Assembly (NCBI RefSeq): GCF_058153355.1
Contig: NZ_CM177019.1
Strand: one strand, 5' to 3'
Length of the DNA: 64,000 nucleotides
In this document: positions 10,803 through 47,216 of the stretch, one piece after another
How positions within the stretch are numbered: the stretch's first letter is position 1
How the letters are laid out: the number at the start of each line of letters is the position of its first letter
The notes under the pieces: generated by a model
Told to the model about the DNA's origin: nothing
Databases searched by the model: none
The model's input: the letters and a program-made list of their open reading frames with translations, nothing else
Translations under genes and position numbers: made by a program

Positions 10803-12029
<1,227 letters not shown>

Positions 12030-12059
12030 CATGCCTGCAATCTGGGAAACCGGGGTAGA

Positions 12060-12090
<31 letters not shown>

Positions 12091-20339: not shown

Positions 20340-21192
20340 TCATCCGTTAGGGATTTATGAAAAAGCGCTGGCGAAAGATCTCTCCTGGCCGGAGCGGCTG
20401 GTGCTGGCAAAAAGCTGCGGTTTTGATTTTGTCGAAATGTCGGTGGATGAAACCGACGAGCGTCTGTCGCGCCTTGACTGGAGCGCCGCACAAAGGACTT
20501 CGCTGGTTGCCGCGATGATCGAAACGGGTGTTGGGATCCCGTCGATGTGCCTGTCCGCACATCGTCGTTTTCCCTTTGGTAGCCGTGACGACGCGGCACG
20601 CCAGCGAGCACGGGAGATCATGAGTAAAGCAATTCGTCTGGCGCGCGATCTCGGTATTCGCACCATTCAACTGGCGGGCTACGACGTCTATTACGAAGCC
20701 CATGACGAAGGCACGCAGCAACGTTTTGCCGAAGGGCTGGCGTGGGCGGTTGAACAGGCAGCCGCCGCGCAGGTGATGCTGGCGGTGGAGATTATGGATA
20801 CTGCGTTTATGAACTCCATCAGCAAATGGAAAAAATGGGACGAGATACTCGCTTCGCCGTGGTTCACCGTCTACCCGGACGTCGGCAACCTTAGCGCCTG
20901 GGGCAATGATGTTCCCGCTGAACTGAAACTGGGCATTGACCGTATCGCCGCCATCCACCTGAAAGATACCCAGCCAGTGACCGAGCATAGCCCCGGACAG
21001 TTCCGCGACGTGCCGTTTGGCGAAGGCTGCGTCGATTTCGTTGGTATCTTCAAAACGCTGCATGAACTGAACTATCGCGGATCATTTCTGATTGAGATGT
21101 GGACCGAAAAAGCCAAAGAGCCGGTGCTGGAGATTATTCAGGCGCGGCGCTGGATTGAAGCGCGTATGCAGGAGGCCGGATTTATATGTTAG
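20332..21192 (+). CDS. sgbU: L-xylulose-5-phosphate 3-epimerase
   Basis: 286 aa from GTG ([15 protein letters not shown]...), TIM-barrel sugar-phosphate epimerase; the ORF-track start at 20299 is an extension. Confidence 0.85.
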
Positions 21193-21680
21193 AGCGATTG
21201 AAAGCCGACGTGCTGGCGGCGAATCTGGCGCTTTATCGTCGCTATGCAGAAATTGGCGGTATTGTGCATACCCACTCGCGCCACGCCACCATCTGGTCAC
21301 AGGCCGGGCTGGATCTCCCCGCCTGGGGCACCACGCACGCCGATTATTTCTATGGTGCCATCCCCTGCACGCGACAGATGACCGCAGAGGAGATTAACGG
21401 CGAATATGAATATCAGACCGGCGAAGTGATCATTGAAACTTTCGAAGAACGCGGCAGGAGTCCGGCACAAATCCCGGCGGTATTGGTGCATTCTCACGGT
21501 CCGTTCGCCTGGGGCAATAACGCCGCCGATGCGGTGCATAATGCCGTGGTACTCGAAGAGTGCGCCTATATGGGCCTGTTCTCGCGCCAGCTTGCGCCGC
21601 AGCTTCCTGCGATGCAAAACGAACTTCTGGATAAGCATTACCTGCGTAAGCATGGGGCCAATGCCTATTACGGGCAGTAA
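21186..21680 (+). CDS. sgbE: L-ribulose-5-phosphate 4-epimerase with an in-frame internal deletion of ~67 codons (164 aa instead of ~231); probably non-functional
   Basis: N-terminus [16 protein letters not shown] joins directly to [21 protein letters not shown]..., omitting the block present in AraD-family epimerases (AraD: ...[21 protein letters not shown]...PTHRLLYQAF...); C-terminal two-thirds is intact. Confidence 0.75.
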
Positions 21681-21688
21681 TCTATCAC

Positions 21689-21710
21689 GCCGGGGCTTCA
21701 TTGCCCCGGC
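21689..21710. terminator. Putative bidirectional terminator hairpin between convergent sgbE and the AraC-family gene
   Basis: gccggggc-ttcatt-gccccggc stem-loop located between two convergent stop codons. Confidence 0.45.
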
Positions 21711-21711
21711 A

Positions 21712-22527
21712 CTACGAATTGATATGTTCCTTGCTGTAACGTCGCTTCCACGCAGCTGGCGTTAAACCGGTGTGTTTGCGAAAAATCTGTCGGAAATAGC
21801 CAACGTCATTAAACCCGCACAACGCCGCCACTTCCGTGAGCGATCGCGCTTCGCTAATTAACAGCTTTTCGGCTTCGCGCACTCGCTGGCGGTGGATTGC
21901 TTCTGTTAACGTCAGATGAAACACCCGCCGATAGACACGCCCAAGATAATCGGCATTGCAGTACAGCTCGCGGGCTAAAAGCGCCGTAGAAAGCGGGCGA
22001 TGATATTGCGTGCGGATCAGTTTCTGCGCTTTCCAGGCAAGCGTGGTACCTGCGGCATCGGCCTGTTCATCAAGACGCGCGTCACGGGTGAGTTGCTGCA
22101 AAATCAGCAGCACAATAAACTCCAGCGCCGGAGTGCGTTGATGCTTTTCCTGTTCGCTTAAGAACTGGCGAAACAGGGCCACCAGCGCCTGCGGATCGGC
22201 AACCTTCGTTTGTTGCGGCACGCTAAGATGAGTGAGCCAGCGCGGGTCGCTATCCGGCGCTTTAACCTCAAAATGCAGCCAGTAAAATTTGAGATCGGCG
22301 GGAAAATCCTCTACCCCAACATGCTGTCGGTTCGGCCAGAGTAATAAACTCTCTCCCGCATCGACCAGAAATATCCGCTCTTCTTCCTGAATCGTTAATC
22401 GACCTTTTTCGACAAAGATAATTTCCCATGACTCCAGCCGCCTTGCCGGATGCCTCCCTACGCCACGGGAAATAAATAATCCACCATTTTGCACTTTAAT
22501 CGGTAACGTCATGGATAATTCGAGCAT
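21712..22527 (-). CDS. AraC/XylS-family transcriptional regulator (cupin N-domain + HTH)
   Basis: 271 aa; C-terminal AraC HTH signature (...LTEVAALCGFNDVGYFRQIFRKHTGLTPAAWKRR); divergent from the MFS transporter gene. Confidence 0.8.
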   Translation of the reverse strand: MLELSMTLPIKVQNGGLFISRGVGRHPARRLESWEIIFVEKGRLTIQEEERIFLVDAGESLLLWPNRQHVGVEDFPADLKFYWLHFEVKAPDSDPRWLTHLSVPQQTKVADPQALVALFRQFLSEQEKHQRTPALEFIVLLILQQLTRDARLDEQADAAGTTLAWKAQKLIRTQYHRPLSTALLARELYCNADYLGRVYRRVFHLTLTEAIHRQRVREAEKLLISEARSLTEVAALCGFNDVGYFRQIFRKHTGLTPAAWKRRYSKEHINS

Positions 22528-22752
22528 TGATATGTAATTTCCCGCTTATTCATTAATGATTAAACACATTACCTTTTGATTATTAATCAAAAACATTAAT
22601 TTCACCTGATCCAATTCACACTTTTAAATTCAGGTCGGAATCGTCACCTTTTTTTACTCTTTTCTCGCCTTGTTGATATTCCCGTTCACGGCAGAATTAA
22701 TCATGTCATTTCAATAAAACTAAAAATTGCTCCCTATGCACGAGGAATATCT

Positions 22753-24153
22753 ATGACCTCTACACCGATTACTACCGCTGATATCGCTAAAGGTAAAATT
22801 GACGATGCGTTATCTGTACGGGAAAAAATAGGCTACGGCCTGGGTGACGCAGGCGGCACCGTAATAACTTGCCTGATCATGAACTTTCTCACCTTTTTCT
22901 ACACCGACGTTTTTGGCTTAACTCCGGCGCTGGTCGGCACGCTGTTTATTGCACTGCGCGTGTTTGATGCCATCTCCGACCCGGTGATGGGCGTCATTGC
23001 CGACCGGACGCAAAGCCGCTGGGGGCGTTTTCGTCCGTGGCAGCTATGGATTGCCGTCCCTATTGGCATTATCGGCATCCTGACGTTCACCGTACCGGAC
23101 GCCAGTATGGGGGTGAAGATCGCCTGGGCGTTCGGCACCTATCTGCTGCTTTCCGTCGGTTATACCGCCATCAACGTGCCGTACTGCGCGCTGATCAACA
23201 CCATGACGACCCGCCACAATGAGGTAATTTCGTGCCAGTCCTGGCGATTCGTTCTCTGCGGCGTAGCGGGATTTCTGGTTTCGGTTGGCCTGCCGTGGAT
23301 GGTAGATCTCTTCGGTCAGGGTAATGCCGCGCGCGGCTATCAACTGGGCGTCGGCGTGCTGTGCGCCATCGCTGTGGTGATGTTCCTGTGCTGTTTCTTC
23401 TGGGTTCGTGAACGGGTGCCACTCTCCACAATGGGGAAATTTACCCTGCGCGAACATCTTGCCGGGCTGCGAAACAACGACCAACTGCTGCTGATGCTGG
23501 TCATGTCTTTCCTGCTGATTAACGTCTTTAATATTCGCGGCGGTGGGTATATGTACTTCATTACCTACGTCTTACAAGGCAGTACGGGCTACACGTCGCT
23601 GTTCTTCACTATGGTCACCTTCGCCTCCATTATCGGCTCGGTGATTGTCAGCCCGTTAACGCGACGTTTCGATACCGTCAAAATTTACTACTACACCAAC
23701 CTGCTCCTCGCCGCGCTGGCGGTGTTGATGTGGTTCCTGCCTTCTGGCCCGGCTTATCAAACGCTGTGGCTGGCGGTGATCCTTGGTAATGGCGTGATTC
23801 TTGGCTTCACATTGCCATTGCACTTCTCATTGATGGCCTTTGCCGATGACTACGGCGAGTGGAAAACCCGCGTACGTTCTTCCGGCATGAACTTCGCCTT
23901 CAATCTGTTTTTCATCAAGCTGGCCTGGGCCTCCAGCGCCGGGATCATCAGCCTGCTGTTTATTTTTGTCGCCTACCAGCCTGGCGTGGAAAACCAGACC
24001 GCCAGTTCGCTTGGCGGGATCGCGGCGATGGAAACATTGCTGCCTGCGCTGTTCCACCTGCTGCTGGCGATGGCGATCCGCTTTTGCAAACTCAATAACC
24101 CTATGATGTCACGCATTGCTAGCGACCTGCGTCAGCGTCATGTACAGCCTTAA
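22753..24153 (+). CDS. MFS transporter, glycoside-pentoside-hexuronide:cation symporter family
   Basis: 466 aa, ~12 predicted TM segments; GPH-family N-terminal region ([30 protein letters not shown], ...[13 protein letters not shown]). Confidence 0.8.
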
Positions 24154-24163
24154 GGAGCACAAG

Positions 24164-26134
24164 ATGAACATTTCGGAAGTCGATCTGCATAAACTGACGG
24201 TCAGCGATCCGTTCCTCGGTCAGTACCAACAACTGGTCCGCGACGTGGTGATTCCTTATCAGTGGGATGCCTTGAACGATCGTATCCCAGAAGCGGAACC
24301 CAGCCATGCGATTGAAAACTTTCGCATTGCCGCAGGACTGCAAGACGGTGAATTTTACGGGATGGTGTTTCAGGACAGCGACGTCGCCAAATGGCTGGAA
24401 GCGGTAGCCTGGTCGCTGTGCCAGAAGCCGGATGCCGAACTGGAAAAAACTGCTGACGAGGTAATCGAACTGGTCGCTTCCGCCCAGTGCGAAGATGGCT
24501 ATCTCAATACTTACTTTACGGTAAAAGCGCCCGAAGAACGCTGGAGCAATCTGGCGGAGTGTCATGAACTTTACTGCGCCGGTCATCTGATTGAAGCCGG
24601 AGTCGCCTTCTTCCAGGCCACGGGCAAGCGGCGCTTGCTGGAAGTGGTTTGCCGTCTGGCCGATCATATCGACAGCGTATTTGGTCCAGGTGAAAGTAAG
24701 TTACACGGTTATCCTGGTCATCCGGAAATTGAACTGGCACTGATGCGCCTGTATGAAGTGACCGAAGAGCCGCGCTACCTGGCGCTGACGAACTATTTTG
24801 TCGAACAGCGTGGTGCGCAACCGCACTATTACGACTAGGAATATGAAAAGCGCGGGCAGACCTCGCACTGGCACACCTACGGCCCGGCGTGGATGGTGAA
24901 AGACAAAGCCTACAGCCAGGCACATTTGCCCATCGCACAGCAGCAAACCGCCATTGGTCACGCGGTACGTTTTGTCTACCTGATGACCGGCGTCGCGCAT
25001 CTCGCGCGTTTAAGTCACGATGAAAGCAAGCGTCAGGACTGCCTGCGGCTGTGGAACAATATGGCCCAGCGTCAGTTATATATTACCGGCGGCATTGGCT
25101 CACAAAGCAGCGGCGAAGCGTTCAGCAGCGATTACGATCTGCCGAATGACACGGTATACGCCGAAAGCTGTGCTTCCATCGGCCTGATGATGTTCGCCCG
25201 GCGAATGCTGGAAATGGAAGGCGACAGTCACTATGCCGATGTGATGGAGCGCGCACTGTACAACACCGTGCTCGGCGGCATGGCGCTGGATGGCAAACAT
25301 TTCTTCTATGTGAATCCGCTGGAAGTACATCCAAAATCGCTGAAATTCAACCATATCTACGATCACGTTAAGCCGATCCGCCAGCGTTGGTTTGGTTGCG
25401 CTTGTTGTCCGCCAAATATCGCCCGCGTGCTAACCTCGATTGGTCATTATCTCTACACGCCGCGTGAAGATGCGTTGTATATCAACATCTACGCAGGAAA
25501 CAGCATGGAAGTGCCGGTAGAAAATGGCACGCTGCGTCTGCGGGTTAGCGGAAACTATCCGTGGCAGGAACAGGTGACAATTGCGGTTGAATCGCCCCAG
25601 CCGGTGCGTCATACGCTGGCTTTACGTCTGCCGGACTGGTGCACACAGCCGCAGATTACATTGAATGGGGAAGAGGTCGAGCAGGATATTCGTAAAGGGT
25701 ATTTGCACATTACCCGCGAATGGCAGGAGGGCGACACGCTGAATCTGACTTTGCCAATGCCGGTACGTCGCGTTTACGGTAACCCGCTGGTGCGTCACGT
25801 CGCCGGAAAAGTGGCGATTCAGCGCGGCCCGCTGGTGTATTGCCTGGAACAGGCCGACAACGGCGAGTCACTGCATAACCTGTGGCTGCCCGCCGATGCG
25901 CCATTTACGACATTTGAAGGTAATGGATTGTTCCGCCATAAGATCTTAATCCAGGCACCGGGTTACCGGTATGAACAGAGCAATCCAGAGCAGCAACCGC
26001 TGTGGCATTACGACAGCGCGCCAGCCAAACGCCAGCCGCAAACTCTGACATTTATCCCGTGGTTTAGCTGGGCTAACCGGGGTGAAGGCGAAATGCGGAT
26101 CTGGGTGAATGAGGAAAACCAGTGCCATCCGTAG
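24164..26134 (+). pseudogene. Glycoside hydrolase family 127-like (beta-L-arabinofuranosidase / DUF1680) gene interrupted by one in-frame TAG at 24836-24838
   Basis: The ORFs 24116-24838 and 24893-26134 are in the same frame and separated only by an amber codon (…AQPHYYD*EYEKRGQTSHWHTYGPAWMVKDKA…); combined length ~656 aa is typical of GH127; RBS AAGGAG 7 nt before the ATG at 24164. Confidence 0.65.
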
Positions 26135-26136
26135 GT

Positions 26137-26215
26137 AGGATAAGGCGCTCGCGCCGCATCCAACCTAGGGTGCACATTGCCTGATGCGACGCTTAACGCG
26201 TCTTATCAAGCCTGA
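26137..26215. repeat. REP-like palindromic sequence
   Basis: ggataaggcgctcgcgccgcatcc and gcctgatgcgacgc motifs. Confidence 0.4.
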
Positions 26216-26263
26216 AGGTCAGTGCGAGAGCGTAGGCCAGCCGCACCGACATCCACCGGTAAA

Positions 26264-27004
26264 TTAAAAACGCCAGCTCACGCCGGTGACAAAGGTAAAA
26301 CTCTCATTACGATCAATCATCGGGCTGTCGGTAATCTCTTCCGGCAGCTCGCTGTATCCGGCACTCGCCATCAATACGATGTGCTCTCCTATCGGGTATT
26401 TTGCCGTCAGGCTGACATAGGGCACCCAGGCATCCTGCGCGGAATAACTTGCCAGACCGCTACGACGGGACTCACTCTCTGAAATGCCATAGTAATAGTC
26501 ACTGAAATTCTCGTCATAATAGAGAACGCCCAGTGCAGGTGTCAGCGACAGGCGACCTATCTGCATTTTGTGAAATACCGATAGCTCCCCCACCCAGCCG
26601 TTGCTGTTATCCAGAACGTCCGCAGCCGCAGAGGCTTTCACGGTTCCCCAACGCTCGTGGTGATACCAGGCAACCCCCGCCATAGCCGTACTATCACGCT
26701 TATCAAGCTGTTGCATGGCATGATCGTCATTATCTGCAGGGTCAAATTCCAGCGGCATCCAGGATGCGGTCAGGCTAAGTTCATTTTTTTCACTTTGCGA
26801 CAGAATAAAACCTAACGTGGTCTGACGAACATAAAAAGAATCACCTTCATAACTAATCAGCGGAATTGCCTTTGTATTTTCATTATAACCACGATAAGGC
26901 GATTCATTATAAGCTGCACCAGCACCAATGGATAATTCAGAAGCAGTAGCGCTTGCCATAAAAGGCAACGTAAATAACGCCACAATATTGCGGTTAATTA
27001 ACAT
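26264..27004 (-). CDS. yiaT: MipA/OmpV-family outer membrane protein
   Basis: 246 aa with signal peptide MLINRNIVALFTLPFMASATA, beta-barrel-like composition, C-terminal aromatic residue (…VSWRF). Confidence 0.85.
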   Translation of the reverse strand: MLINRNIVALFTLPFMASATASELSIGAGAAYNESPYRGYNENTKAIPLISYEGDSFYVRQTTLGFILSQSEKNELSLTASWMPLEFDPADNDDHAMQQLDKRDSTAMAGVAWYHHERWGTVKASAAADVLDNSNGWVGELSVFHKMQIGRLSLTPALGVLYYDENFSDYYYGISESESRRSGLASYSAQDAWVPYVSLTAKYPIGEHIVLMASAGYSELPEEITDSPMIDRNESFTFVTGVSWRF

Positions 27005-27127
27005 GTCCGGTATTCCATTTTAAAATAAGATAAAAAAGAGTCGGCATAATAATGCTTACAATTTCTCCGGTGCAAGATTCATATTTATATAGTAATATAT
27101 AAAATTATATATAATTGGGCTGTTGCG

Positions 27128-29725: not shown

Positions 29726-30061
29726 ATGGAACTATTGACCAAACTAATGAATAACCCCAGTAAAACATCCACAGTACAGATAAAGCGTATTAAACCTTCA
29801 ATTATCTACCGTTTATTGCTGATTGGCCTCGGAACACCAATGGTGATTTACGGTCTGGTTTGCGGCGTTTTAGGCATATTTGGCTACGATCAGGTGAGAT
29901 GGAACGACACCGTGATCCACGGCCTGCTGGCCCTGCCTGCGGGATTGCTTGCAGGCCTGTCAGTCAGTGTGTTCCTCACCGTGGTGATTGGCACCATCGC
30001 TTGTTTTGGTCTGTGGCTGTACAGCCTGGTCCGCCCGCTCACCATCGAAACGCGAGATTAA
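29726..30061 (+). CDS. Hypothetical small membrane protein (start uncertain; 29678 is an alternative)
   Basis: ORF with hydrophobic helices (LLLIGLGTPMVIYGLVCGVLGIFGY; LLALPAGLLAGLSVSVFLTVVIGTIACFGLWLY); convergent with hicB; no family recognised. Confidence 0.4.
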   Translation: MELLTKLMNNPSKTSTVQIKRIKPSIIYRLLLIGLGTPMVIYGLVCGVLGIFGYDQVRWNDTVIHGLLALPAGLLAGLSVSVFLTVVIGTIACFGLWLYSLVRPLTIETRD

Positions 30062-30468
30062 ACGCCCGGCAATACACGCCGGGCGGCTTCCGCCAGAAAC
30101 GCACTTCTGTTGGCGTAGTCTGGGTTATTGCGCACGTAGGTATCAATCTTGTTCAGTAATCTTTTCGGCATCGTAATATTGATACGTTCAGCCCGACCTT
30201 CGAACTGATTCATATTGATATCCACCAGCAACCATTGCCCGCCAATAAAGTCCTGCGCACGCTGGACCAGATGTGTTTCCACAGAGCCTGGAAGCGGCAA
30301 CTCTTCATTCATCTCGCATAAGGTTTCGAAGTGCGCGACCAGTGCACTTCGCGCATCCTGGAAAGCGTTGTCCAGCGTATCACCAGCAAAATAACAGCCT
30401 GGAACATCAGGGAAAAAACCGCTGGCGCTGCCGTCAGGATCACTGTGGATATAGGCGGGATAAAACAT
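30058..30468 (-). CDS. hicB: HicB-family antitoxin (RNase H-like fold N-domain + C-terminal RHH DNA-binding motif)
   Basis: 136 aa; …NITMPKRLLNKIDTYVRNNPDYANRSAFLAEAARRVL is a ribbon-helix-helix tail typical of HicB; located 16 bp downstream of the hicA-like ORF. Confidence 0.75.
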   Translation of the reverse strand: MFYPAYIHSDPDGSASGFFPDVPGCYFAGDTLDNAFQDARSALVAHFETLCEMNEELPLPGSVETHLVQRAQDFIGGQWLLVDINMNQFEGRAERINITMPKRLLNKIDTYVRNNPDYANRSAFLAEAARRVLPGV

Positions 30469-30484
30469 ATTGCCTCCTGAAATT

Positions 30485-30670
30485 TTAAAATGTTAAACCA
30501 GCCTGACGCCCAATTTGCGCCAGCGTACCGGGCTTAATATCTTTTTTAGGGTGCGGAACCGTCACCAGACCCGGATGAACAGGGTGGCGGAACTGATGAT
30601 GACTACCACGGGTTCGAATATGTTCCCAGCCATGCTGCTTCAGGATGGCGATCACGTCTGCACTTTTCAC
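30485..30670 (-). CDS. hicA: HicA-family mRNA interferase toxin
   Basis: 61 aa: …TRGSHHQFRHPVHPGLVTVPHPKKDIKPGTLAQIGRQAGLTF matches the HicA signature (GSHH…P…K-D-I/L…G-T-L…I…Q-A-G-L). Confidence 0.75.
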   Translation of the reverse strand: MKSADVIAILKQHGWEHIRTRGSHHQFRHPVHPGLVTVPHPKKDIKPGTLAQIGRQAGLTF

Positions 30671-37965: not shown

Positions 37966-38180
37966 GCCGAGTCCTTTGTGCGAGGAAAAATATCAGTATG
38001 GCCTGGTGATGGGAAAAAGGGCAGAAAATGTTGATGGTTTGTTACTTCCCAATAAATCACATATTTATCATGGTGATATAAATATTTTCCTAATTGTTCT
38101 TATCTGACAGATATCTCACTTAAGGCTTTCTTATAAATCTGTAGGGTTTGCACCATGAGTGCGGTAGCTATGAGGTTTAT

Positions 38181-40493
38181 ATGTCCTCAGAAGGATTACG
38201 TTTCACGCTGTCGGTGGCCGGTATCGTGGAGATGGCGACGGCGGTGGTGAGCTTCCGTCTGTACCAGCACCACTGCACGCCGTTCATCCTGGATGTGGAT
38301 ATCGCCAGCGGGCTGCCCGACCTGACGGCGGAGGATTTTCTGGAGAAGAGCGCGGTGCTGACGGTCTGGCAGGGTGATATCCCGCAGCGTTACGTCAGCG
38401 GTATCGTGACGGAGGTGCAGCTCGGTGAGAACAACGACTGGCAGATGCGTTATTCCCTGAGCATCAGCCCGCCGCTGTGGCGGGCAGGGTTACGGCAGAA
38501 CTTCCGTATCTTCCAGCAGCAGGACATTCAGACGATATCAGCACAGCTTCTGAGAGAGAACGGGGTGACGGCGTGGATGCCGCTGTTCTATGAGGCGCAC
38601 CCGGCGCGGGAGTTCTGCGTGCAGTACGGGGAGAGCGACCTGGCATTCCTGACCCGGCTGTGGGCGGAGGAAGGTATCTTCTTTTATGAGCGCTGCGGTC
38701 AGGAAGGGCCGGAGCAGAAGCTGGCGGTGTGTGATGACGTGGCGGGGCTGACGGGAATGGGGGCGCTGGCGTTTAACCCGAATACCACGACCGGGGGAAC
38801 GACGGAGTACATCAGTGAGTTTCGTTACCGTGCGCAGATAAGCGTGGCGTCGGTGGAGACGCAGGATTATACGTTCAAAACGCCGGGGTGGCCGGGGTAC
38901 TACAGCCATGACGGGGAGAGCCTGAACGGGCAGGGAACGCAGTACGAGATATTTGATTATCCGGGGCGTTTCAAGGATGAGCAGCATGGCCAGGATTTTG
39001 CGCGTTACCAGACGGAAGGGTGGCGGAACGGGGCGGAGACGGCGAGCGGGGTGTGTAACACGGCGCGGCTGTGGCCGGGAACGCGGTTCCGGCTGACGGG
39101 CCATCCCTCAGAGACGCTGAACCGGGAATGGCAGGTTGTGGGAAGCACACTGCGGGGAGAACAGCCGCAGGCGCTGCACGGGAGTCACGGTGAAGGGACG
39201 ACACTGAGCAATCAGTTTGAGGTGATACCGGCAGACAGGACGTGGCGTCACGCGCCGCTGCCGAAGCCGAAGGTGGACGGCCCGCAGAGTGCCATCGTGA
39301 CCGGGCCGAAGGGTGAGGAGATATTCTGCGACGAGCATGGCCGGGTACGGGTGAAGTTTCACTGGGACCGTTATCACGGGATGACGGAGGAGAGTTCGTG
39401 CTGGATACGGGTGTCGCAGGCATGGGCGGGACCGGGGTTCGGCAATCTGGCGATACCGCGTGTGGGTCAGGAAGTGATAGTGGACTTTCTGAACGGCGAC
39501 CCGGACCAGCCCATTGTGACGGGGCGGACCTACCATGAAGATAACCGTTCACCGGGGGATTTACCGGGCACGCGGACGCAGATGACCATCCGCTCGAAGA
39601 CCTATAAAGGAAGCGGCTTTAATGAACTGCGTTTCGAGGATGCGACGGACAGTGAGCAGGTGTATATCCACGCGCAGAAGAACATGGACACGGAGGTGCT
39701 TAACGACCGGACGACGGACGTGAAGCATGACCATACGGAGACCATCGGTAACGACCAGAAGATAAGGGTGGTGAAGGGGCAGACGGTTGAGGTCGGCACC
39801 AGAAAAGAAGGGGGTCACGACCAGAGTATCACGGTGGCGAACGACCGGCGCATAACGGTACGTAATGACCAGACGCTGAAGGTGACGAATGACCGGACGG
39901 TGAGCGTGAGTCACGATGACGGCCTGTATGTCAGAAACGACCGTAAAGTGACGGTGGAAGGGAAGCAGGAGCATAAGACGACGGGGAACCATATCAGCCT
40001 GGTGGAGGGAAAGCACAGTCTGGAGGTGAAGGGCGACCTGGCGGAGAAGGTGAGTGGCGCGCTGGGGATCAAGGTGGACGGGGATATCGTGCTGGAGAGC
40101 AGCAGCCGGATAAGCCTGAAAGTGGGCGGCTCGTTCGTGGTGATACACTCTGGCGGTGTGGATATTGCGGGGCCGAAGATAAACCTCAACGGGGGAGGCA
40201 GTCCGGGGACGCCAGTACAGACGTTACAACCGGTGGTACTGGAGGCGCTGGAGGATGAGAATGATGATGAGAACCCTGAAAAATATACTCTCCAGTTCCA
40301 TTTTACAGACGATGACGGGATACCGTATTCAGAGACACGCTACATTGCCTTCTTTGAGGACGGCACGCAGACGCGAGGGGAGACGGATGAAAATGGGTAT
40401 ACGGAAACATTCTCCACTGACAGCGAGCAGACAATCGAAGTCAGATTGTTGCATTTGAATATCGATATGATATGGGGAGGGATTAATGAATAG
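38181..40493 (+). CDS. vgrG: Type VI secretion spike protein VgrG (copy 1) with ~80-aa C-terminal extension (possible transthyretin-like adaptor domain)
   Basis: 770 aa from MSSEGLRFTLSVAGIVE…; gp27-like N-domain, gp5-like OB/beta-helix region with repeated VxVxV-type strands (…ITVANDRRITVRNDQTLKVTNDRTVSVSHDD…), then …VVIHSGGVDIAGPKINLNGGGSPG and an extension …YTLQFHFTDDDGIPYSETRYIAFFEDGTQTRGETDENGYTETF…. No YD repeats, so not Rhs. Confidence 0.9.
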   Translation: MSSEGLRFTLSVAGIVEMATAVVSFRLYQHHCTPFILDVDIASGLPDLTAEDFLEKSAVLTVWQGDIPQRYVSGIVTEVQLGENNDWQMRYSLSISPPLWRAGLRQNFRIFQQQDIQTISAQLLRENGVTAWMPLFYEAHPAREFCVQYGESDLAFLTRLWAEEGIFFYERCGQEGPEQKLAVCDDVAGLTGMGALAFNPNTTTGGTTEYISEFRYRAQISVASVETQDYTFKTPGWPGYYSHDGESLNGQGTQYEIFDYPGRFKDEQHGQDFARYQTEGWRNGAETASGVCNTARLWPGTRFRLTGHPSETLNREWQVVGSTLRGEQPQALHGSHGEGTTLSNQFEVIPADRTWRHAPLPKPKVDGPQSAIVTGPKGEEIFCDEHGRVRVKFHWDRYHGMTEESSCWIRVSQAWAGPGFGNLAIPRVGQEVIVDFLNGDPDQPIVTGRTYHEDNRSPGDLPGTRTQMTIRSKTYKGSGFNELRFEDATDSEQVYIHAQKNMDTEVLNDRTTDVKHDHTETIGNDQKIRVVKGQTVEVGTRKEGGHDQSITVANDRRITVRNDQTLKVTNDRTVSVSHDDGLYVRNDRKVTVEGKQEHKTTGNHISLVEGKHSLEVKGDLAEKVSGALGIKVDGDIVLESSSRISLKVGGSFVVIHSGGVDIAGPKINLNGGGSPGTPVQTLQPVVLEALEDENDDENPEKYTLQFHFTDDDGIPYSETRYIAFFEDGTQTRGETDENGYTETFSTDSEQTIEVRLLHLNIDMIWGGINE
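39163..40040. repeat. Near-identical ~0.9-kb vgrG 3'-core repeat, copy 1 of 3
   Basis: Sequence and six-frame antisense ORFs are identical to 43497-44374 and 49075-49900 (e.g. ORF 39602-39799 = 43935-44132 = 49459-49656). Confidence 0.85.
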
Positions 40494-40576
40494 AGAGTGA
40501 CCGCCTGTAATTGGCGTGTTTTTGCATAAATGGAACAGGGTTTTGTAGTGAAAACATATTGCTAAGGAGGATTTAT

Positions 40577-41422
40577 ATGGGAGATGGAAAGGGTAGTACG
40601 AGCGGAAAAAGCCAGAGCGGTGAACAGTGTGTAGTTTTAAAGGAGGGAAAAATTACTAATGATTTTAAAATAATGATGAGAGAGGCTCTGAAGGCGCTGA
40701 TGGCTGTATTGAAGAAAAGAGTAGAAGATCTTGGTGATAAATGGGGAGAGGAACAAAATCAGGAGTTTATAAATATATTTGGTATTGATGGAAATACTTA
40801 TATTAAATTAGAGTTCCCTTTCGGGGGGCGTAAGGTTATGTTTCCAGAGAATATAAAGGCAAGGGATTATATGAGAAATGGCGTTACTCGCCTGTATGAG
40901 ATATGTGGGGAATTATCTGTGGAAGGTGATTGTGTAGACGTTACTATTCATGACCATTTCCTCAAACGTGATGCCAATTGTAATCTTGTTCTTAATGACA
41001 AAGGGGGTAATGAATATGTTGACAAAGACGTAATCAGGCCCAAAACCGGTAACTTTGTGAATTGTACAGATAATGACGCTTATGCTGCCAATGTAACTTA
41101 CGATCAGATTTTGGGTGTAAAACCTGGAGGCTTTAAAAGTTTGGTAAGTATAACTATAGGACAAAGATTTATAGATAGGCCACCCACTGGGAAAAACTCT
41201 AAGGCATCGACACTCTGCCATGAACTATCTCACTTTATAAGGTACGGGGATTCATTTAAGTTTGGAGGCATGTGGACGGAAGATATGCCGGTAGATATAG
41301 AGTATAATACAGGTGACGAATATATTGTTCATGCCACTAAATTAAAAAATGATAAAAAATCAGAACTATTTCAGAATGCATATAATATCGAACGTTATTT
41401 CGAGATTCATGTACCATATTGA
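40577..41422 (+). CDS. Putative T6SS effector, HExxH zincin-like metallopeptidase candidate
   Basis: 281 aa from ATG 40577 (RBS aaggagg upstream); AT-rich; HELSH motif at 41219-41233 followed by …GGMWTEDMPVDIEYNTGDEY…; no signal peptide; directly downstream of vgrG-1. Confidence 0.55.
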   Translation: MGDGKGSTSGKSQSGEQCVVLKEGKITNDFKIMMREALKALMAVLKKRVEDLGDKWGEEQNQEFINIFGIDGNTYIKLEFPFGGRKVMFPENIKARDYMRNGVTRLYEICGELSVEGDCVDVTIHDHFLKRDANCNLVLNDKGGNEYVDKDVIRPKTGNFVNCTDNDAYAANVTYDQILGVKPGGFKSLVSITIGQRFIDRPPTGKNSKASTLCHELSHFIRYGDSFKFGGMWTEDMPVDIEYNTGDEYIVHATKLKNDKKSELFQNAYNIERYFEIHVPY

Positions 41423-41446
41423 TGCTTTTATTTGACGGGGGAGTAT

Positions 41447-42355
41447 ATGCTTGCTAGATGGATTGTTTTTATTGTTTTTTTTGCGCATCCAATATTTGCT
41501 TATGATATCTCTGGCGATTATGCTGTTCATTACAGATATGGGAAGTTATATTGGAATGGAGTAATGGACAAACTTGGTGTCTATCCTCGTGTAGAGCCGA
41601 CAAGGCTTAATTATTATGATTATTATGATGATCTTTCAGCCTATGCTGTTTTTCAATATTATACTATCAGTAAAAATGAGAGTCAGTATAATCAAGATAA
41701 AAATAAAATATATCTTCATCTTTCCGTGCATCAGAAAGAAAATATTGTAGCAGCTGCAGTGGTTTTATCGAATAAAAGCCAGGGATCTTATTTTGTTCAT
41801 CGACTAACTCTTCCTCTTGACGTTAACGGCGGGCCTTACTCTTCCTTGTGTAGTGGTGTGTTTATACCGATAATGGATAACATTCAGTTGGATTTTTTAA
41901 AAAAAACAAAATGTAGCTTTGGTGAATGGAAAAATAAATCCGTTTGGCACGAGATATTAACAGGGAAAGAGCTATCCTTTGATGTCATATTGAACGATTA
42001 TTATGCCTTTTTACCGGGCATTCATCGTTATAATATAGGAACGGTAGAATTTACAATAGTTAATCAAGAGTGGTTTACAGAACAATGTATATATGAGTAT
42101 TTTCTTTCTATTATGAACTGGCGGGCAGAAAGTGAGTGTACTAATCCTATAGATAAAATAAGATATGGTATAGAGGAGTGGCGGGTTTGGAGAATTTGTG
42201 GACCTTATCGTGGGTCAGGTCTATTTCAGGATTTTTTAGCACGCTTTGGCTATCATGGCGGTAATGATAATATATTCAAAATAAGATCAAATCAGGTTGT
42301 GGTTACTATTGATGGGGATAGGGCATCTCCTCCTTATTCGTTGAGGAATTATTAA
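41447..42355 (+). CDS. Putative cognate immunity protein (secreted/periplasmic) for the HExxH effector
   Basis: ~303 aa with N-terminal signal peptide MLARWIVFIVFFAHPIFA; AT-rich; starts 24 bp after the effector stop; no recognisable family. Confidence 0.45.
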   Translation: MLARWIVFIVFFAHPIFAYDISGDYAVHYRYGKLYWNGVMDKLGVYPRVEPTRLNYYDYYDDLSAYAVFQYYTISKNESQYNQDKNKIYLHLSVHQKENIVAAAVVLSNKSQGSYFVHRLTLPLDVNGGPYSSLCSGVFIPIMDNIQLDFLKKTKCSFGEWKNKSVWHEILTGKELSFDVILNDYYAFLPGIHRYNIGTVEFTIVNQEWFTEQCIYEYFLSIMNWRAESECTNPIDKIRYGIEEWRVWRICGPYRGSGLFQDFLARFGYHGGNDNIFKIRSNQVVVTIDGDRASPPYSLRNY

Positions 42356-42510
42356 TGTTAACTTATTGTCATGGCTACAATTCGTTGGTTTTCCTGTTGA
42401 GATGATAATATATATGAGAAAAACAGGCAATGAACCAGTGAGAGAATATCAGAAGATACGGTCAACATCGGTTAATTACTTTTTCCTGTAGCGATACCAG
42501 GGAGGTCATC

Positions 42511-44712
42511 ATGTCATTAAAAGGGCTGCGCTTTACGCTGACGGTGGACGGACTGGTGCCGGAGACGTTTGCGGTGGTGGATTTCCGCCTCACGCAGGCA
42601 TACTCATCGCCGTTCGTCCTGGATGTGGACGTTGCCAGCGACTCGTTCCGCCAGACGGCGGAGAAGCTGCTGGAGAAGGGGGCCGTACTGACCATCTGGC
42701 AGGGTGGCACGGCGCTGCGTTATGTGAGCGGTGTGGTGTCGGGGTTCGGCATGAAGGAGCACAACGGCTGGCAGATGCAGTACCACCTTCAGATACGTCC
42801 GCCCCTGTGGCGCAGCGGGCTGCGCCAGAACTACCGAATCTTCCAGCAGCAGGACATTCAGGCCATCTCCGCCACGCTGTTAAACGAGGACGGAGTGACG
42901 CAGTGGACGCCGCGCTTTTATGAGAGCCACCCGGCACGGGAGTTCTGCGTCCAGTACGGTGAAAGCGACATGGCGTTTCTGACCCGGCTGTGGGCGGGGG
43001 AAGGCATCTTCTTTTATGACAGATACGCTGACGACAGCCCGGAGCAGACGCTCACGCTGTGCGATGATGTGGCGGGCCTGCCGGTGTACGGGGAGATACC
43101 GTTTAACCCGAACACCCGTGAGGTGACGACGGCGTGCATCAGCCTGTTCCGCTACCAGGCGCAGGTGCGGCCCTCGCAGGTGCGTTCAAAAGACCACACG
43201 TTTAAGGTGCCGGACTGGCCGGGTATTTACATTGAGGATGCTGAAAACCTCAACGGGCAACTGAAGCAGTACAAAATCCTGGACTGGCCGGGGCGCTACA
43301 AGGACGAGCAGCATGGTCAGGACTTTACCCGCTACCGGCTGGAAGGGCTGCGTAACAGTGCTGAAACCGCCACAGGTATCAGTAACTCCCCGGCGCTGTG
43401 GCCGGGACGGCGGTTCACCTTGACGGGGCATCCGGTACAGGGAGCGAACCCGAACCGTGAGTGGCAGGTGGTGAGCAGCACGCTGACGGGGAGCCAGCCG
43501 CAGGCGCTGCACGGGAGTCACGGTGAAGGGACGACACTGAGCAATCAGTTTGAGGTGATACCGGCAGACAGGACGTGGCGTCACGCGCCGCTGCCGAAGC
43601 CGAAGGTGGACGGCCCGCAGAGTGCCATCGTGACCGGGCCGAAGGGTGAGGAGATATTCTGCGACGAGCATGGCCGGGTACGGGTGAAGTTTCACTGGGA
43701 CCGTTATCACGGGATGACGGAGGAGAGTTCGTGCTGGATACGGGTGTCGCAGGCATGGGCGGGACCGGGGTTCGGCAATCTGGCGATACCGCGTGTGGGT
43801 CAGGAAGTGATAGTGGACTTTCTGAACGGCGACCCGGACCAGCCCATTGTGACGGGGCGGACCTACCATGAAGATAACCGTTCACCGGGGGATTTACCGG
43901 GCACGCGGACGCAGATGACCATCCGCTCGAAGACCTATAAAGGAAGCGGCTTTAATGAACTGCGTTTCGAGGATGCGACGGACAGTGAGCAGGTGTATAT
44001 CCACGCGCAGAAGAACATGGACACGGAGGTGCTTAACGACCGGACGACGGACGTGAAGCATGACCATACGGAGACCATCGGTAACGACCAGAAGATAAGG
44101 GTGGTGAAGGGGCAGACGGTTGAGGTCGGCACCAGAAAAGAAGGGGGTCACGACCAGAGTATCACGGTGGCGAACGACCGGCGCATAACGGTACGTAATG
44201 ACCAGACGCTGAAGGTGACGAATGACCGGACGGTGAGCGTGAGTCACGATGACGGCCTGTATGTCAGAAACGACCGTAAAGTGACGGTGGAAGGGAAGCA
44301 GGAGCATAAGACGACGGGGAACCATATCAGCCTGGTGGAGGGAAAGCACAGTCTGGAGGTGAAGGGCGACCTGGCGAGGAAGATTACCGGTGCGCTGGGA
44401 ATGAAGGTCCGGAATGAAATCGTACTGGAGAGTGGCGGTAAAATCACCCTAAAGGTGGGTGGTTCGTTTGTGGTCATCCATTCAGGGGGCGTGGACATCG
44501 TCGGGCCGAAAATCAATCTCAATAGCGGCGGTAGTCCGGGAACGCCGGTGCCGACGCTACGACCGGCGGTTTTGAAAGCGCTGGCAGATTATGACAATGG
44601 CGGACCTGGAACTGAAGGGGCGGAGCCACCACGGAAAAGTGTACAGGAAGCCTTTGATCCTCCCCAGCAGGATAAGGTACCGCCACAACGGCCGGGAAGA
44701 TTCTCACGATAA
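42511..44712 (+). CDS. vgrG: Type VI secretion spike protein VgrG (copy 2)
   Basis: 733 aa from MSLKGLRFTLTVDGLVPETFAVVDF…; same architecture as copy 1; short Pro/Gln-rich C-terminal tail. Confidence 0.9.
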   Translation: MSLKGLRFTLTVDGLVPETFAVVDFRLTQAYSSPFVLDVDVASDSFRQTAEKLLEKGAVLTIWQGGTALRYVSGVVSGFGMKEHNGWQMQYHLQIRPPLWRSGLRQNYRIFQQQDIQAISATLLNEDGVTQWTPRFYESHPAREFCVQYGESDMAFLTRLWAGEGIFFYDRYADDSPEQTLTLCDDVAGLPVYGEIPFNPNTREVTTACISLFRYQAQVRPSQVRSKDHTFKVPDWPGIYIEDAENLNGQLKQYKILDWPGRYKDEQHGQDFTRYRLEGLRNSAETATGISNSPALWPGRRFTLTGHPVQGANPNREWQVVSSTLTGSQPQALHGSHGEGTTLSNQFEVIPADRTWRHAPLPKPKVDGPQSAIVTGPKGEEIFCDEHGRVRVKFHWDRYHGMTEESSCWIRVSQAWAGPGFGNLAIPRVGQEVIVDFLNGDPDQPIVTGRTYHEDNRSPGDLPGTRTQMTIRSKTYKGSGFNELRFEDATDSEQVYIHAQKNMDTEVLNDRTTDVKHDHTETIGNDQKIRVVKGQTVEVGTRKEGGHDQSITVANDRRITVRNDQTLKVTNDRTVSVSHDDGLYVRNDRKVTVEGKQEHKTTGNHISLVEGKHSLEVKGDLARKITGALGMKVRNEIVLESGGKITLKVGGSFVVIHSGGVDIVGPKINLNSGGSPGTPVPTLRPAVLKALADYDNGGPGTEGAEPPRKSVQEAFDPPQQDKVPPQRPGRFSR
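43497..44374. repeat. Near-identical ~0.9-kb vgrG 3'-core repeat, copy 2 of 3
   Basis: See copy 1. Confidence 0.85.
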
Positions 44713-44721
44713 GGACTGAAC

Positions 44722-47211
44722 ATGAAAATCAGCCATCCCATCAGGGATAAAGAAGGCAAAGAGTTTCGCTCACTGGATGAGATAATGCGGCTTATTGACA
44801 AAGAAGCGCACGGAACCTGGCTGCTGGGTGGAAACGGGCTGTGGCACGGCGGGATACATATCAGTGACGTGTCTAATCCGTTATCAGCCCTGAAACCGGA
44901 TACCGCCGCTACCGGAGAACCGGTTCCTCTTCAGTTTATGGCCGATGGCACCATTGCGGCGTACCGGATAAATAATGATTACCTGAAAGGCCCCTACAAA
45001 GGGCAGCAACTCCGTTACAGCAGCACATTTGTTCTGGTGAAATCGCAGTGCCAGCCAGACCCGCAAAAAAAAGAAAGCTGGCTGGAATTTTACTGTCTCT
45101 ATATGCATCTGGCCCCGGTGAACGATTATCCCGGCTCCCCCTGCTATAAAGTTAAAACCGGGCATGGTGGCATATTGCTGCACCGATACATCCCGGGAAA
45201 GAACGGCCTTCCCGAGGGGCAGGAAAGCGGAGATCATGCCACGTACTGGATACCCCCGAAAATCAGCGGAAACAGGACACTTAATGCGGGAGATCGGTTT
45301 GTGTCATCCCGGACCGGACGTTTTTACGTGACCAATAACGGCCAGCCGGTCCTGACGACATTCGGACTGGTTCGCCTGCTGGAAGGCAATAAACCGGGGA
45401 ATGAGCAGTACTGGGTGACCCTGGATCCGGATCTGATGGAGTCAGATGGCGAAATACAGATGCTGATGCCTGAGTGGATGCAGAAGGCGAAGGCAAAAGG
45501 CATTTTTGACTCGGTACAGACGGTCGACGAAACGGAAGAGTGGAAAGTCAGTGCCGGAACACCGGTCGGATTTATGGGATGCGAGGATTATCCTGGCGAG
45601 GGAAGCGGTGAGATTGAGCGCGAGTGGTTCGTCCATCTGGAGGTTCTGAGTACAGACCCGAATATGCCAAAGTTCTTATCCAACCCGGCAGGCGTTAAGG
45701 GAGAAAAACGGACTGTTCTGGCACCAAAAGGGATAATTTTATACACCCGGCAGGCCGTTCCGGGACAGGAGGTATTTACCGCAACCGCAGCCACGCTGGG
45801 TGCTCAGCGCGTTCTTCCGCGGGAAGCCACGACACCAGTCACGGATGAATCGCAGCAGTGGTGGTTTAATATCACCGGAACCGGCTGGCTGCCACAAAAG
45901 GATGTTGAAGAGGCCGGACAGTATGATTTACTGAAGCTGGGTTTTCAACCGCTGGAGGAGAACAGCAGCGGTGACATGACGTACAGCCCGTACGAAGGAT
46001 GGGTGCCGGAAGCGTTTGACTCAATAAGCCGTGCCGCAGAACAGGGAGATGAGTGGCTGTATGAGCAGGTACCGCCCTTTTATCGTGAGCTGATGGCGGG
46101 TATGGATCAGGACGGTGATGGAAAAGTGACGGAGGAAGAGATCAGACAGGCGCTGATCGTGCGTGAACCACTGGTGAGAAATGTGGTGAATCATCTGATA
46201 GTTAAACACCACAGCGAATGGTACGGAGGGCGCTCGACAGGGCGGTGGGAAGGATTTTATAAAGATCTGGATACAGAGGAAGTGGCATACTGTGAGAAGT
46301 GGCAGCTGGATCTGGAGTGGATGAGCGGGGTATCTCCGTTTAATAGTGATGATGCTGTGTGGCATTTTCATCCGGTTGTGTTTTTGGACGCTATTAATTC
46401 CAAATCTGTGTGTGCTTGCAACAGAGATATAACATTAGATGAATTAAAAAAAGTTGCTCCTGCAGTAAGTGAAGGTCTTCTCAAAAGGTACCTCTACGAT
46501 ATAAATGCAGGGTTTATTCGGTTTGGTATGACCACTTGTAGAGAAAAAGCCCATTTTCTTGCTCAAATTATTCACGAGAGCGGTTATTTTAGATATACCA
46601 AAGAAATTAATGGTGAATCAGCTTCATATAGTCCGTGGTATGGCCGAGGCTTAATACAAGTTACAGGCGAAAGTAATTACACCGCCTATGGGGAATATAT
46701 CAATGAGGACGTAACATCTTCAGATTCCGCAAGAGATAAACTCATATCCTCCCCACATTGCGTATTATCTGCGTTTTGGTATTTCAATATATTCAAAAGA
46801 ATAAATGAAGATGCTAAAAATGATGATTTTAATAAAATTACAGTAGTGATTAATGGAGGGTATAATCATTATGATGAACGGTTGTCGATATTTAATAAAT
46901 TGGTTACCTCACTTGCTGCCGAGCATTTAAATCAGAAAGAAATGAACGACGATTTCTTGTTTGATGATAGTGACGTATATGATAATAAAGTATATGCTTT
47001 GGGATGGGGGATATGGCATGATCCTGATAGCTCCCGAAGAGGGACGATCAAGAGTAACGAAGAAGCATTAAAAGGTTATAGAAGGGCGAAAGAATTAATT
47101 GACCTGCATCCGTTTCCTCAGGAAGGGCGTGAGGGTGATAGAAAAGTATATGGAATAGAAAAAAGGAATATATCCACATTTGTAGAGAGACGAATAACTG
47201 AACTGGAGTAA
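44722..47211 (+). CDS. Large T6SS effector: possible M23/LytM-like N-region, EF-hand calcium-binding motif, C-terminal GH19/lysozyme-like peptidoglycan hydrolase domain
   Basis: 829 aa; EF-hand loop DQDGDGKVTEEE (~46102); C-terminal …REKAHFLAQIIHESGYFRYTKEINGESASYSPWYGRGLIQVTGESNYTAYG… (from ~46537) matches the GH19 / 'predicted chitinase' catalytic signature; N-region WHGGIHISDV…ADGTIAAY…YMHL resembles a divergent M23 peptidase (tentative). Confidence 0.7.
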   Translation: MKISHPIRDKEGKEFRSLDEIMRLIDKEAHGTWLLGGNGLWHGGIHISDVSNPLSALKPDTAATGEPVPLQFMADGTIAAYRINNDYLKGPYKGQQLRYSSTFVLVKSQCQPDPQKKESWLEFYCLYMHLAPVNDYPGSPCYKVKTGHGGILLHRYIPGKNGLPEGQESGDHATYWIPPKISGNRTLNAGDRFVSSRTGRFYVTNNGQPVLTTFGLVRLLEGNKPGNEQYWVTLDPDLMESDGEIQMLMPEWMQKAKAKGIFDSVQTVDETEEWKVSAGTPVGFMGCEDYPGEGSGEIEREWFVHLEVLSTDPNMPKFLSNPAGVKGEKRTVLAPKGIILYTRQAVPGQEVFTATAATLGAQRVLPREATTPVTDESQQWWFNITGTGWLPQKDVEEAGQYDLLKLGFQPLEENSSGDMTYSPYEGWVPEAFDSISRAAEQGDEWLYEQVPPFYRELMAGMDQDGDGKVTEEEIRQALIVREPLVRNVVNHLIVKHHSEWYGGRSTGRWEGFYKDLDTEEVAYCEKWQLDLEWMSGVSPFNSDDAVWHFHPVVFLDAINSKSVCACNRDITLDELKKVAPAVSEGLLKRYLYDINAGFIRFGMTTCREKAHFLAQIIHESGYFRYTKEINGESASYSPWYGRGLIQVTGESNYTAYGEYINEDVTSSDSARDKLISSPHCVLSAFWYFNIFKRINEDAKNDDFNKITVVINGGYNHYDERLSIFNKLVTSLAAEHLNQKEMNDDFLFDDSDVYDNKVYALGWGIWHDPDSSRRGTIKSNEEALKGYRRAKELIDLHPFPQEGREGDRKVYGIEKRNISTFVERRITELE

Positions 47212-47216
47212 TTGAT

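Follow-up and report, generated by a model that had tools for sequence, protein, structure and literature searches.

Several sugar systems of Escherichia coli, including melAB/MelR, uidAB and yicJI, combine a glycoside-pentoside-hexuronide (GPH):cation symporter that imports a glycoside, a cytoplasmic glycoside hydrolase that splits it, and a dedicated regulator, which in the mel system is also AraC-type and divergently transcribed. The solved glycoside hydrolase family 127 (GH127) beta-L-arabinofuranosidase (EC 3.2.1.185) of PDB entries 4QJY and 4QK0, which we take to be Ara127N of Geobacillus stearothermophilus T6, presumably comes from a Gram-positive cluster for arabinan utilisation that relies on ABC transport. 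GH127 enzymes are built from a catalytic (alpha/alpha)6 domain followed by middle and C-terminal beta-sandwich domains, and CAZy places them among the cysteine glycosidases. HypBA1 (BLLJ_0211) of Bifidobacterium longum, solved as PDB 3WKW and 3WKX, is a cytoplasmic GH127 enzyme partnered by an ABC importer. Its nucleophile is Cys417, its acid/base is Glu322, and a Cys3-Glu zinc site is formed by E338, C340, C417 and C418 (PMC8106489). Binding of beta-L-Araf in this enzyme involves H142, Y145, H194 and R273 (PMC10850190). At the chromosomal site considered here, a published strain table places ysaC and ysaD between yiaS(sgbE) and yiaT (PMC12361893).

The locus described here lies in a 64,000-nucleotide stretch of DNA (the window) that is 98-99% identical to its best complete E. 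coli match. Between sgbE and yiaT lies a block of 4423 bp encoding an AraC-type regulator, a GPH symporter and a GH127 frame, and its three reading frames are found exactly where an earlier note on this DNA had placed them (Table 1). The families proposed in that note (AraC, GPH and GH127/DUF1680) are each matched by Pfam far beyond chance and are matched in NCBIfam as well, and its hydrolase of about 656 amino acids does correspond to a frame of 656 codons, but one that is interrupted by an in-frame TAG at codon 225. The regulator has the same length as its closest E. coli copy, with 99.9% nucleotide identity, and yiaT is 99.7% identical to its own. The locus is ordinary and already known: about 43% of complete E. 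coli genomes have it routinely annotated, the products appearing as an AraC regulator, an MFS transporter and a GH127 protein.

Table 1. Features of the sgbE-yiaT region; positions are those of the window.
Feature	Position	Strand	Remarks
sgbE (L-ribulose-5-phosphate 4-epimerase), left flank	21186-21680	+	private 201-bp in-frame deletion
AraC/XylS-family regulator	21712-22527	-	271 aa, intact; divergent from the transporter and hydrolase genes
Segment absent from K-12-type genomes (first deletion)	21816-25836		4021 bp; blastn against the K-12 locus (L001) and junction sequences
Divergent control region	22528-22752		225 bp, AT-rich
GPH:cation symporter (glycoside-pentoside-hexuronide)	22753-24153	+	466 aa, intact; Pfam MFS_2 4.6e-73
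GH127 (DUF1680) beta-L-arabinofuranosidase-type gene	24164-26134	+	656 codons; pseudogene in the window
Premature TAG stop, Q225*	24836-24838	+	CAG/CAA in relatives
yiaT (MipA/OmpV family), right flank	26264-27004	-	intact; Pfam MipA 1.4e-52

The hydrolase shares the three-domain architecture of HypBA1. Pfam matches to the GH127 catalytic (6e-51 and 1e-56), middle (1e-24) and C-terminal (1e-25) domains were obtained, and PF07944, PF20736 and PF20737 all exceed their gathering thresholds when the two fragments into which the frame is divided are taken together, although an uninterrupted full-length GH127 reading frame is not present here. Full-length matches were found to both solved beta-L-arabinofuranosidases, with E-values of 9.8e-236 for 4QJY and 5e-153 for HypBA1 (3WKW); 4QJY is the closest solved relative, at 788 bits over residues 11-650, and it carries a Gln where the window has the stop. 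The HypBA1 acid/base, nucleophile and remaining zinc ligands Glu322, Cys417, Glu338, Cys340 and Cys418 correspond to E318, C414, E334, C336 and C415 of the hydrolase, all conserved, and the sugar-binding residues H142, Y145, H194 and R273 are likewise all retained as H134, Y137, H186 and R269. The gene follows the symporter gene at a distance of 10 bp, and its product has no signal peptide. As in the bifidobacterial system, a cytoplasmic enzyme would thus be paired with an importer, which in the trio is a GPH symporter instead of an ABC transporter; the trio further differs from that system in its AraC-type regulation and in having no GH121 arabinobiosidase nearby. Likewise, where the 4QJY enzyme sits in its larger cluster, the enterobacterial gene forms part of a minimal regulator-symporter-hydrolase trio.

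These similarities suggest that uptake and hydrolysis of beta-L-arabinofuranosides is most likely the function of intact orthologues, which E. coli B/BL21 (WP_001026900) and O157:H7, for instance, carry; substrate, inducer and transport direction are all taken from homology. Compared with HypBA1, in which loop A (aa 35-49) covers the active site, the hydrolase lacks 12 residues of this loop, so that aglycone specificity may differ; the 4QJY enzyme has the same short form. The shorter loop leaves some room for a module that is equally ancestral but whose GH127 enzyme acts on a substrate other than a beta-L-arabinofuranosyl oligosaccharide, for example an arabinofuranoside among the plant secondary metabolites, Araf-beta1-Hyp or some other sugar. 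GH127 does include alpha-1,3-(3,6-anhydro)-D-galactosidases (PMC5698469) as well as an aceric acid hydrolase family, and neither the regulator nor the symporter matches a characterised equivalog. However, both of the closest solved relatives were deposited as beta-L-arabinofuranosidases and are matched over their full length, and the complete retention of the HypBA1 sugar-binding, catalytic and zinc residues makes a different substrate unlikely. The aceric acid hydrolase model, the only NCBIfam model for GH127, was rejected as an assignment, as it covers only the C-terminal 60% of the protein and its score of 455 bits lies well below the 950 required.

The locus is probably best described as a vertically inherited enterobacterial catabolic trio whose intact copies serve beta-L-arabinofuranosides and whose hydrolase is dead in this window, a reading held with good though incomplete confidence. 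In the proposed module, an AraC-type regulator would be divergently transcribed from a two-gene operon encoding the GPH:cation symporter and a cytoplasmic, zinc-dependent GH127 cysteine glycosidase. The symporter would import a small beta-L-arabinofuranoside, with Araf-beta1,2-Ara as a candidate, that may derive from hydroxyproline-rich glycoproteins and be freed by other gut- or plant-associated microbes. The GH127 enzyme would then split the imported sugar to yield L-arabinose, with the regulator presumably turning the operon on upon sensing the sugar. To our knowledge, an obvious secreted enzyme that would release such oligosaccharides is lacking in E. coli. A search of the accessible literature returned nothing beyond genomic correlations and the names of the K-12 pseudogenes, and no experimental work on any of the three enterobacterial proteins.

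More tentatively, the intact trio may represent an uncharacterised enterobacterial system for scavenging beta-L-arabinofuranosides, governed by an AraC-type sensor and a CRP-assisted promoter, with its losses reflecting niche-dependent selection that is perhaps linked to the invasiveness of isolates from inflammatory bowel disease (IBD); this wider proposal falls somewhat short of an even call. An example of such scavenging would be beta-arabinobiose freed by bifidobacterial GH121 from dietary extensin-type glycoproteins. If this were the case, repeated loss or decay of the module, by deletion in K-12-type genomes and by point inactivation here, would reflect niche-dependent selection. GH127 has been reported to co-segregate with epithelial invasiveness in IBD isolates (PMC11879602).

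The symporter is recognised by the NCBIfam GPH-family model TIGR00792 (gph) at 332.6 bits, above the cut-off of 231.35, over residues 25-462. It falls below the NCBIfam cut-offs for YagG (356 against 610), the PRK11462 GPH-family transporter (325 against 836), MelB (209 against 456) and the glucuronide transporter (193 against 528), which sets it apart from the transporters of the melAB, uidAB and yicJI systems, just as the cysteine glycosidase belongs to a different family from their hydrolases. The best solved relative of the symporter is MelB (3.7e-38).

The regulator carries the C-terminal double helix-turn-helix and the N-terminal AraC-type ligand-binding domain of AraC/XylS proteins, with Pfam matches to HTH_18 (2e-19), HTH_AraC (2e-10) and AraC_binding (1.3e-09). 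It lies below every NCBIfam equivalog cut-off, its highest score being 61.5 bits with the AraC model, which requires 208, and is therefore not an AraC equivalog. The control region between the regulator and symporter genes has a GC content of 0.40, whereas that of the flanks is about 0.55. When 69 intergenic regions were aligned, columns conserved at 95% or above formed blocks shared across genera: GATC..TCACA (about 22608-22620, CRP-like), TCGGAATCGTCAC (22636-22648), TTTTTACTCTTT, TTGTTGAT and GGCAGAAT. A simple scan of the control region for the sigma-70 consensus found no strong promoter, which would fit an activator-dependent promoter. On the basis of this cross-genus conservation, the region might serve as promoter and operator, with a possible contribution of CRP.

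In this copy of the block, the hydrolase gene is a pseudogene through a private CAG-to-TAG nonsense mutation. The codon is CAG in one related locus (L002) and CAA in another (L003). A 41-mer carrying the TAG was found in none of 5426 complete E. coli genomes, whereas the control 41-mer with CAG was found in 2170 of them, confirming that the search works. The stop divides the frame into a fragment of 224 codons and a downstream ORF (24893-26134), and all catalytic residues are encoded downstream of it, which leaves the pathway non-functional in this strain. The earlier note had seen in the block a niche trait of the strain, a suggestion that the inactivated hydrolase overturns; the presence of the gene block does not equal a working trait, as this strain is unable to make the enzyme.

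Further private changes point the same way. The GH127 gene carries six non-synonymous and two synonymous private substitutions, with five amino-acid changes besides the stop, compared with one non-synonymous and 20 synonymous substitutions in the adjacent symporter gene (Fisher p = 4e-4, on eight GH127 substitutions and three to four reference genomes). Such a non-synonymous excess is as expected after loss of constraint, suggesting that, following the stop, the gene has gathered mostly non-synonymous changes. It also bears on the alternative that the strain has a functional hydrolase, with the TAG either read through or introduced by an error of sequencing or assembly. This reading draws on the fact that only one base differs, and on two further apparent lesions in the window, 1-bp frameshifts in short homopolymers (in yiaM at about 15429, A7 to A8, and in aldB at about 31663, T3 to T2), that could reflect assembly quality; however, consensus assemblies rarely carry substitution errors, the substitution pattern in the GH127 gene differs from that of its neighbour, and a 201-bp deletion between direct repeats, as in neighbouring sgbE, is not a type of error. 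A functional hydrolase in this strain is accordingly judged improbable.

The comparison with other genomes concerns the history of the block. Of 80 related genome loci, 68 carry the trio in identical order; sgbE adjoins it in 24 and yiaT follows downstream in 23, and the complete sgbE-trio-yiaT arrangement is found at 13 loci, which belong to five other genera (Citrobacter, Pseudocitrobacter, Enterobacter, Lelliottia and Huaxiibacter). Copies of GH127 with 72% identity occur in Bradyrhizobium. What K-12 retains of the block at the same chromosomal site is 104 bp from the 3' end of the regulator gene, homologous to window 21712-21815, and a 190-bp stretch with 89.5% identity to part of the hydrolase gene (window 25837-26026); these scars correspond to the ysaC and ysaD pseudogenes. 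Besides the first deletion, K-12-type genomes have a second one of about 216 bp (about 26021-26236), located between GCCAGCC repeats; the window, which has lost neither segment, retains the whole block and differs in its point-inactivated hydrolase. The K-12 gene order given in the earlier note, with sgbE next to yiaT, is thus only loosely true, as two pseudogene remnants of the block lie between the two genes. The presence of the block's genes at this site in K-12, which that note named as grounds for refuting its reading, is borne out in part, by the remnants of the regulator and the hydrolase.

Together, the K-12 remnants and the synteny in other genera indicate that the K-12 arrangement is a deletion. 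On the evidence of gene order, the position of the module between sgbE and yiaT is established as ancestral, and the shared junctions likewise establish that about 45% of complete E. coli genomes, K-12 included, lost it by one and the same pair of deletions, with the ysaC and ysaD scars as their trace. Among 5426 complete E. coli genomes, 2461 (45%) contain the 81-mer of the K-12 junction and 2324 (43%) keep the block; further deletion forms exist besides. Each of the 2325 E. coli copies lies on the chromosome, nearly always as the only copy in its genome. The polarity proposed in the earlier note, which described an island inserted between sgbE and yiaT, is therefore reversed by the occupied site in five other genera, the K-12 scars and the missing marks of a mobile island.

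The genomic-island signs that were looked for (distinct composition, mobility marks, and a scar-free empty site together with absence in related genera) were not found. The coding GC of the block (0.52-0.59) is similar to that of the flanks (0.55-0.58), with AT-richness confined to the intergenic promoter region; flanking direct or inverted repeats were only short and of chance level, and the search found no tRNA in the window, no integrase or transposase, and no plasmid or phage copies in E. coli. A horizontally acquired accessory island that serves this strain as a working niche trait is hence very improbable, even though K-12 and about 57% of complete E. coli genomes lack the block and GH127 has been listed among the non-core CAZy families of the species (bioRxiv 10.1101/2021.10.19.464957), given the remnants of both end genes in K-12, the repeated synteny, the flank-like GC without repeats, tRNA, integrase or plasmid copies, and the truncated hydrolase.

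With K-12 representing the derived, deleted state, its gene order is unsuited as an ancestral reference at this site. Beyond careful annotation the locus is of little consequence, as the K-12 scars already carry gene names and GH127 already appears in the literature as a variable CAZy family of E. coli.

A further private lesion is located next to the block, in sgbE, where the deletion is bounded by ATCTGGCGCTT repeats at 21220-21233. None of the complete E. coli genomes contains the contiguous deletion junction; two records with a coverage of 80% or more were considered as carriers and rejected, as their matches consist of two pieces joined across about 275 bp and are not the deleted form. 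The shortened sgbE product has 164 aa compared with the normal 231, and its Pfam Aldolase_II match begins at profile position 75.

An AraC-type regulator, a GPH-family symporter and a GH127 hydrolase are encoded between sgbE and yiaT, and the gene content and coordinates reported for this trio in the earlier note are correct, because the ORF table frames and Pfam assignments agree with them. The hydrolase, which had been described as an enzyme of about 656 aa, is instead encoded by a 656-codon frame with an in-frame stop (TAG) at 24836-24838. Strain 2020CK-00188 is the complete genome closest to the window (98-99% identity), and compared with it both the regulator and the symporter gene have their full length. 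The symporter scores above the NCBIfam cut-off for the GPH family, matches no characterised equivalog among the NCBIfam models, and has MelB as its nearest solved protein.

Features of the sgbE-yiaT interval
Feature	Position	Strand	Size	Assignment
sgbE	21186-21680			Left flank of trio (ORF table)
Regulator frame	21712-22527	minus	271 aa	Pfam HTH_18 (2e-19), AraC_binding (1.3e-09)
Transporter frame	22753-24153	plus	466 aa	Pfam MFS_2, GPH family (4.6e-73)
Hydrolase frame	24164-26134		656 codons	In-frame TAG at codon 225
Hydrolase fragment, upstream ORF	24116-24838	plus		GH127 catalytic domain (Pfam E 6e-51)
Hydrolase fragment, downstream ORF, same frame	24893-26134	plus		GH127 catalytic domain (1e-56), middle and C-terminal domains (1.3e-24 and 1e-25)
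yiaT	26264-27004			Right flank of trio (ORF table)

The trio had been read as an accessory island inserted between genes described as neighbours in K-12, a reading that is partly contradicted by K-12 itself, where remnants of the regulator and hydrolase genes are present at this site. In the K-12 annotation, the interval from sgbE (annotated there as araD) to yiaT contains two partial features, an 'AraC family transcriptional regulator' and a hypothetical protein, and a strain table names the remnants between yiaS (sgbE) and yiaT as ysaC and ysaD (PMC12361893). By blastn, what K-12 retains is the 3′-terminal 104 bp of the regulator gene (21712-21815) together with a 190-bp piece of the hydrolase gene (25837-26026, 89.5% identity); it has also undergone a second deletion, a small one at about 26021-26236 that is bounded by GCCAGCC repeats. 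When the repaired hydrolase protein was searched against one genome per bacterial species, 80 loci were returned, 68 of which have the canonical regulator(-)/symporter(+)/hydrolase(+) order. The trio has sgbE directly upstream in 24 loci, yiaT downstream in 23, and both in 13, belonging to Citrobacter, Pseudocitrobacter, Lelliottia, Huaxiibacter and Enterobacter. The block shows no marks of an island: its GC content is the same as that of its flanks, a repeat search around it found no meaningful flanking repeats, and no tRNA lies within the window. Because of the K-12 scars, the shared arrangement in other genera and the absence of island marks, the block is ancestral at this site and the gene order of K-12 arose from it by deletion, contrary to the insertion first proposed. 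Several Bradyrhizobium genomes (loci L076-L080 and L082) have a GH127 protein that shares 72% identity with that of E. coli, without AraC or GPH neighbours; such high identity is unexpected in an alphaproteobacterium, and the Bradyrhizobium GH127 may derive from horizontal transfer.

A megablast search located the whole stretch 21000-27100 in 2310 of 5426 complete E. coli genomes. The segment absent from K-12 (21816-25836) occurs in 2324 (43%), chromosomal every time and nearly always in single copy. The K-12 junction 81-mer occurs in 2461 of the 5426 (45%), therefore the same deletion is common to nearly half of the species; within E. coli, the sgbE-yiaT locus is prone to deletion. All block-positive genomes inspected have the trio annotated by RefSeq, a preprint places GH127 outside the core CAZy families of E. 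coli and reports it to depend on clade (bioRxiv 10.1101/2021.10.19.464957), and a 2024 study, setting function by homology to the Bifidobacterium longum enzyme HypBA1, found GH127 to co-segregate with invasiveness among IBD isolates (PMC11879602). The block is therefore an already annotated presence/absence polymorphism that was misread as an insertion. The trio is kept in O157:H7 (L086), which has lost yiaK-sgbE and carries a truncated yiaJ, and in strain 21AH057 (L087), which has lost yiaT-yiaW such that the hydrolase gene abuts hicBA-aldB. In Escherichia whittamii (L007, 2657-4364), sgbE also appears to be missing, because sgbU lies 44 bp from the AraC-type gene and no sgbE separates them.

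Over its full length, the hydrolase is homologous to GH127 beta-L-arabinofuranosidases of solved structure, namely 4QJY (E = 9.8e-236) and HypBA1 (E = 5e-153). HypBA1 employs Cys417 as nucleophile, Glu322 as acid/base and a Cys3-Glu zinc site (PMC8106489), which align with C414, E318 and E334/C336/C414/C415 of the hydrolase, and its sugar-pocket residues H142, Y145, H194 and R273 (PMC10850190) align with H134, Y137, H186 and R269. In HypBA1 the active site is capped by a loop that is shorter by 12 residues in the hydrolase, as it is in 4QJY. GH127 also includes 3,6-anhydro-D-galactosidases (PMC5698469) and the aceric acid hydrolase family, the NCBIfam model of which matches the hydrolase partially and below cut-off. 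The gene identities and the probable beta-L-arabinofuranoside chemistry suggested previously are supported; the searched literature yielded no study, biochemical or genetic, of a GH127 member from enterobacteria.

In intact copies, the symporter would import a small beta-L-arabinofuranoside, the cytoplasmic GH127 enzyme would free L-arabinose for the ara pathway, and the AraC-type protein would turn the operon on when the sugar is present. The hydrolase lacks a signal peptide, and its gene begins 10 bp past the end of the symporter gene. The proposed step is analogous to the cytoplasmic step that follows extracellular beta-arabinobiose release by GH121 in B. longum (PMC8106489); E. coli encodes no GH121-type enzyme near the trio, therefore cross-feeding would be needed. 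Sixty-nine sequences from many genera share conserved blocks in the divergent control region (225 bp, AT-rich), among them a CRP-like GATC..TCACA element and motifs immediately upstream of a weak -35/-10 candidate; a consensus scan of this region found no strong promoter.

Relative to strain 2020CK-00188 the TAG represents Q225*; relatives encode Gln at this codon, as CAG or CAA, and Gln also occupies the position in the 4QJY enzyme. A 41-mer carrying the TAG is absent from all 5426 complete E. coli genomes; its counterpart with CAG, the control, is present in 2170. Neither hydrolase fragment could work as an enzyme, because the TAG leaves roughly 212 of the 376 profile positions of the catalytic domain on its 5′ side and all of the catalytic residues on its 3′ side. 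With the hydrolase broken at codon 225, the trio is non-functional in this strain, and a niche trait of the strain is not supported. Private substitutions, defined as changes found only in the window when it is compared with three or four reference E. coli genomes, number six non-synonymous (Q225*, Q356H, T577A, K587N, K652N and H653Q) and two synonymous in the hydrolase gene, compared to one and 20 in the symporter gene (Fisher p = 4e-4, on small counts). Though the counts are small, this pattern fits real loss of constraint better than base-calling error. The 20 private synonymous changes and one amino-acid change in the symporter gene relative to four E. coli references, against none in the adjacent regulator gene, suggest that the former is a recombined, divergent allele segment.

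Disruptions affect four (sgbE, GH127, yiaM and aldB) of about 40 genes, which suggests either that the genome is decaying or that the assembly contains some errors. sgbE has lost 201 bp in frame between ATCTGGCGCTT direct repeats (junction 21220-21233), a private deletion that removes 67 codons of the aldolase-II fold; the contiguous junction is found in no complete E. coli genome of the 5426. Relative to the closest genome, yiaM has a 1-bp frameshift at about 15429 (A7 to A8 at the gene start, stop at codon 6) and aldB one at about 31663 (T3 to T2, stop at codon 281). yiaW and aldB are separated by a hicA/hicB toxin-antitoxin pair and a small hypothetical gene (29747-30670); the closest E. 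coli genome has the same arrangement, and these genes are not known at this position in K-12. Compared with that closest E. coli genome, the Rhs/polymorphic-toxin region downstream of yibF (38149-54403) is not colinear, and a 1278-bp insertion separates avtA and ysaA (10808-12085). The ORF within this insertion (11000-11980, plus strand, 326 aa) matches the NCBIfam 'IS110 family RNA-guided transposase' model (253 bits, cut-off 140); the insertion size and protein length fit IS621, the bridge-RNA recombinase element.
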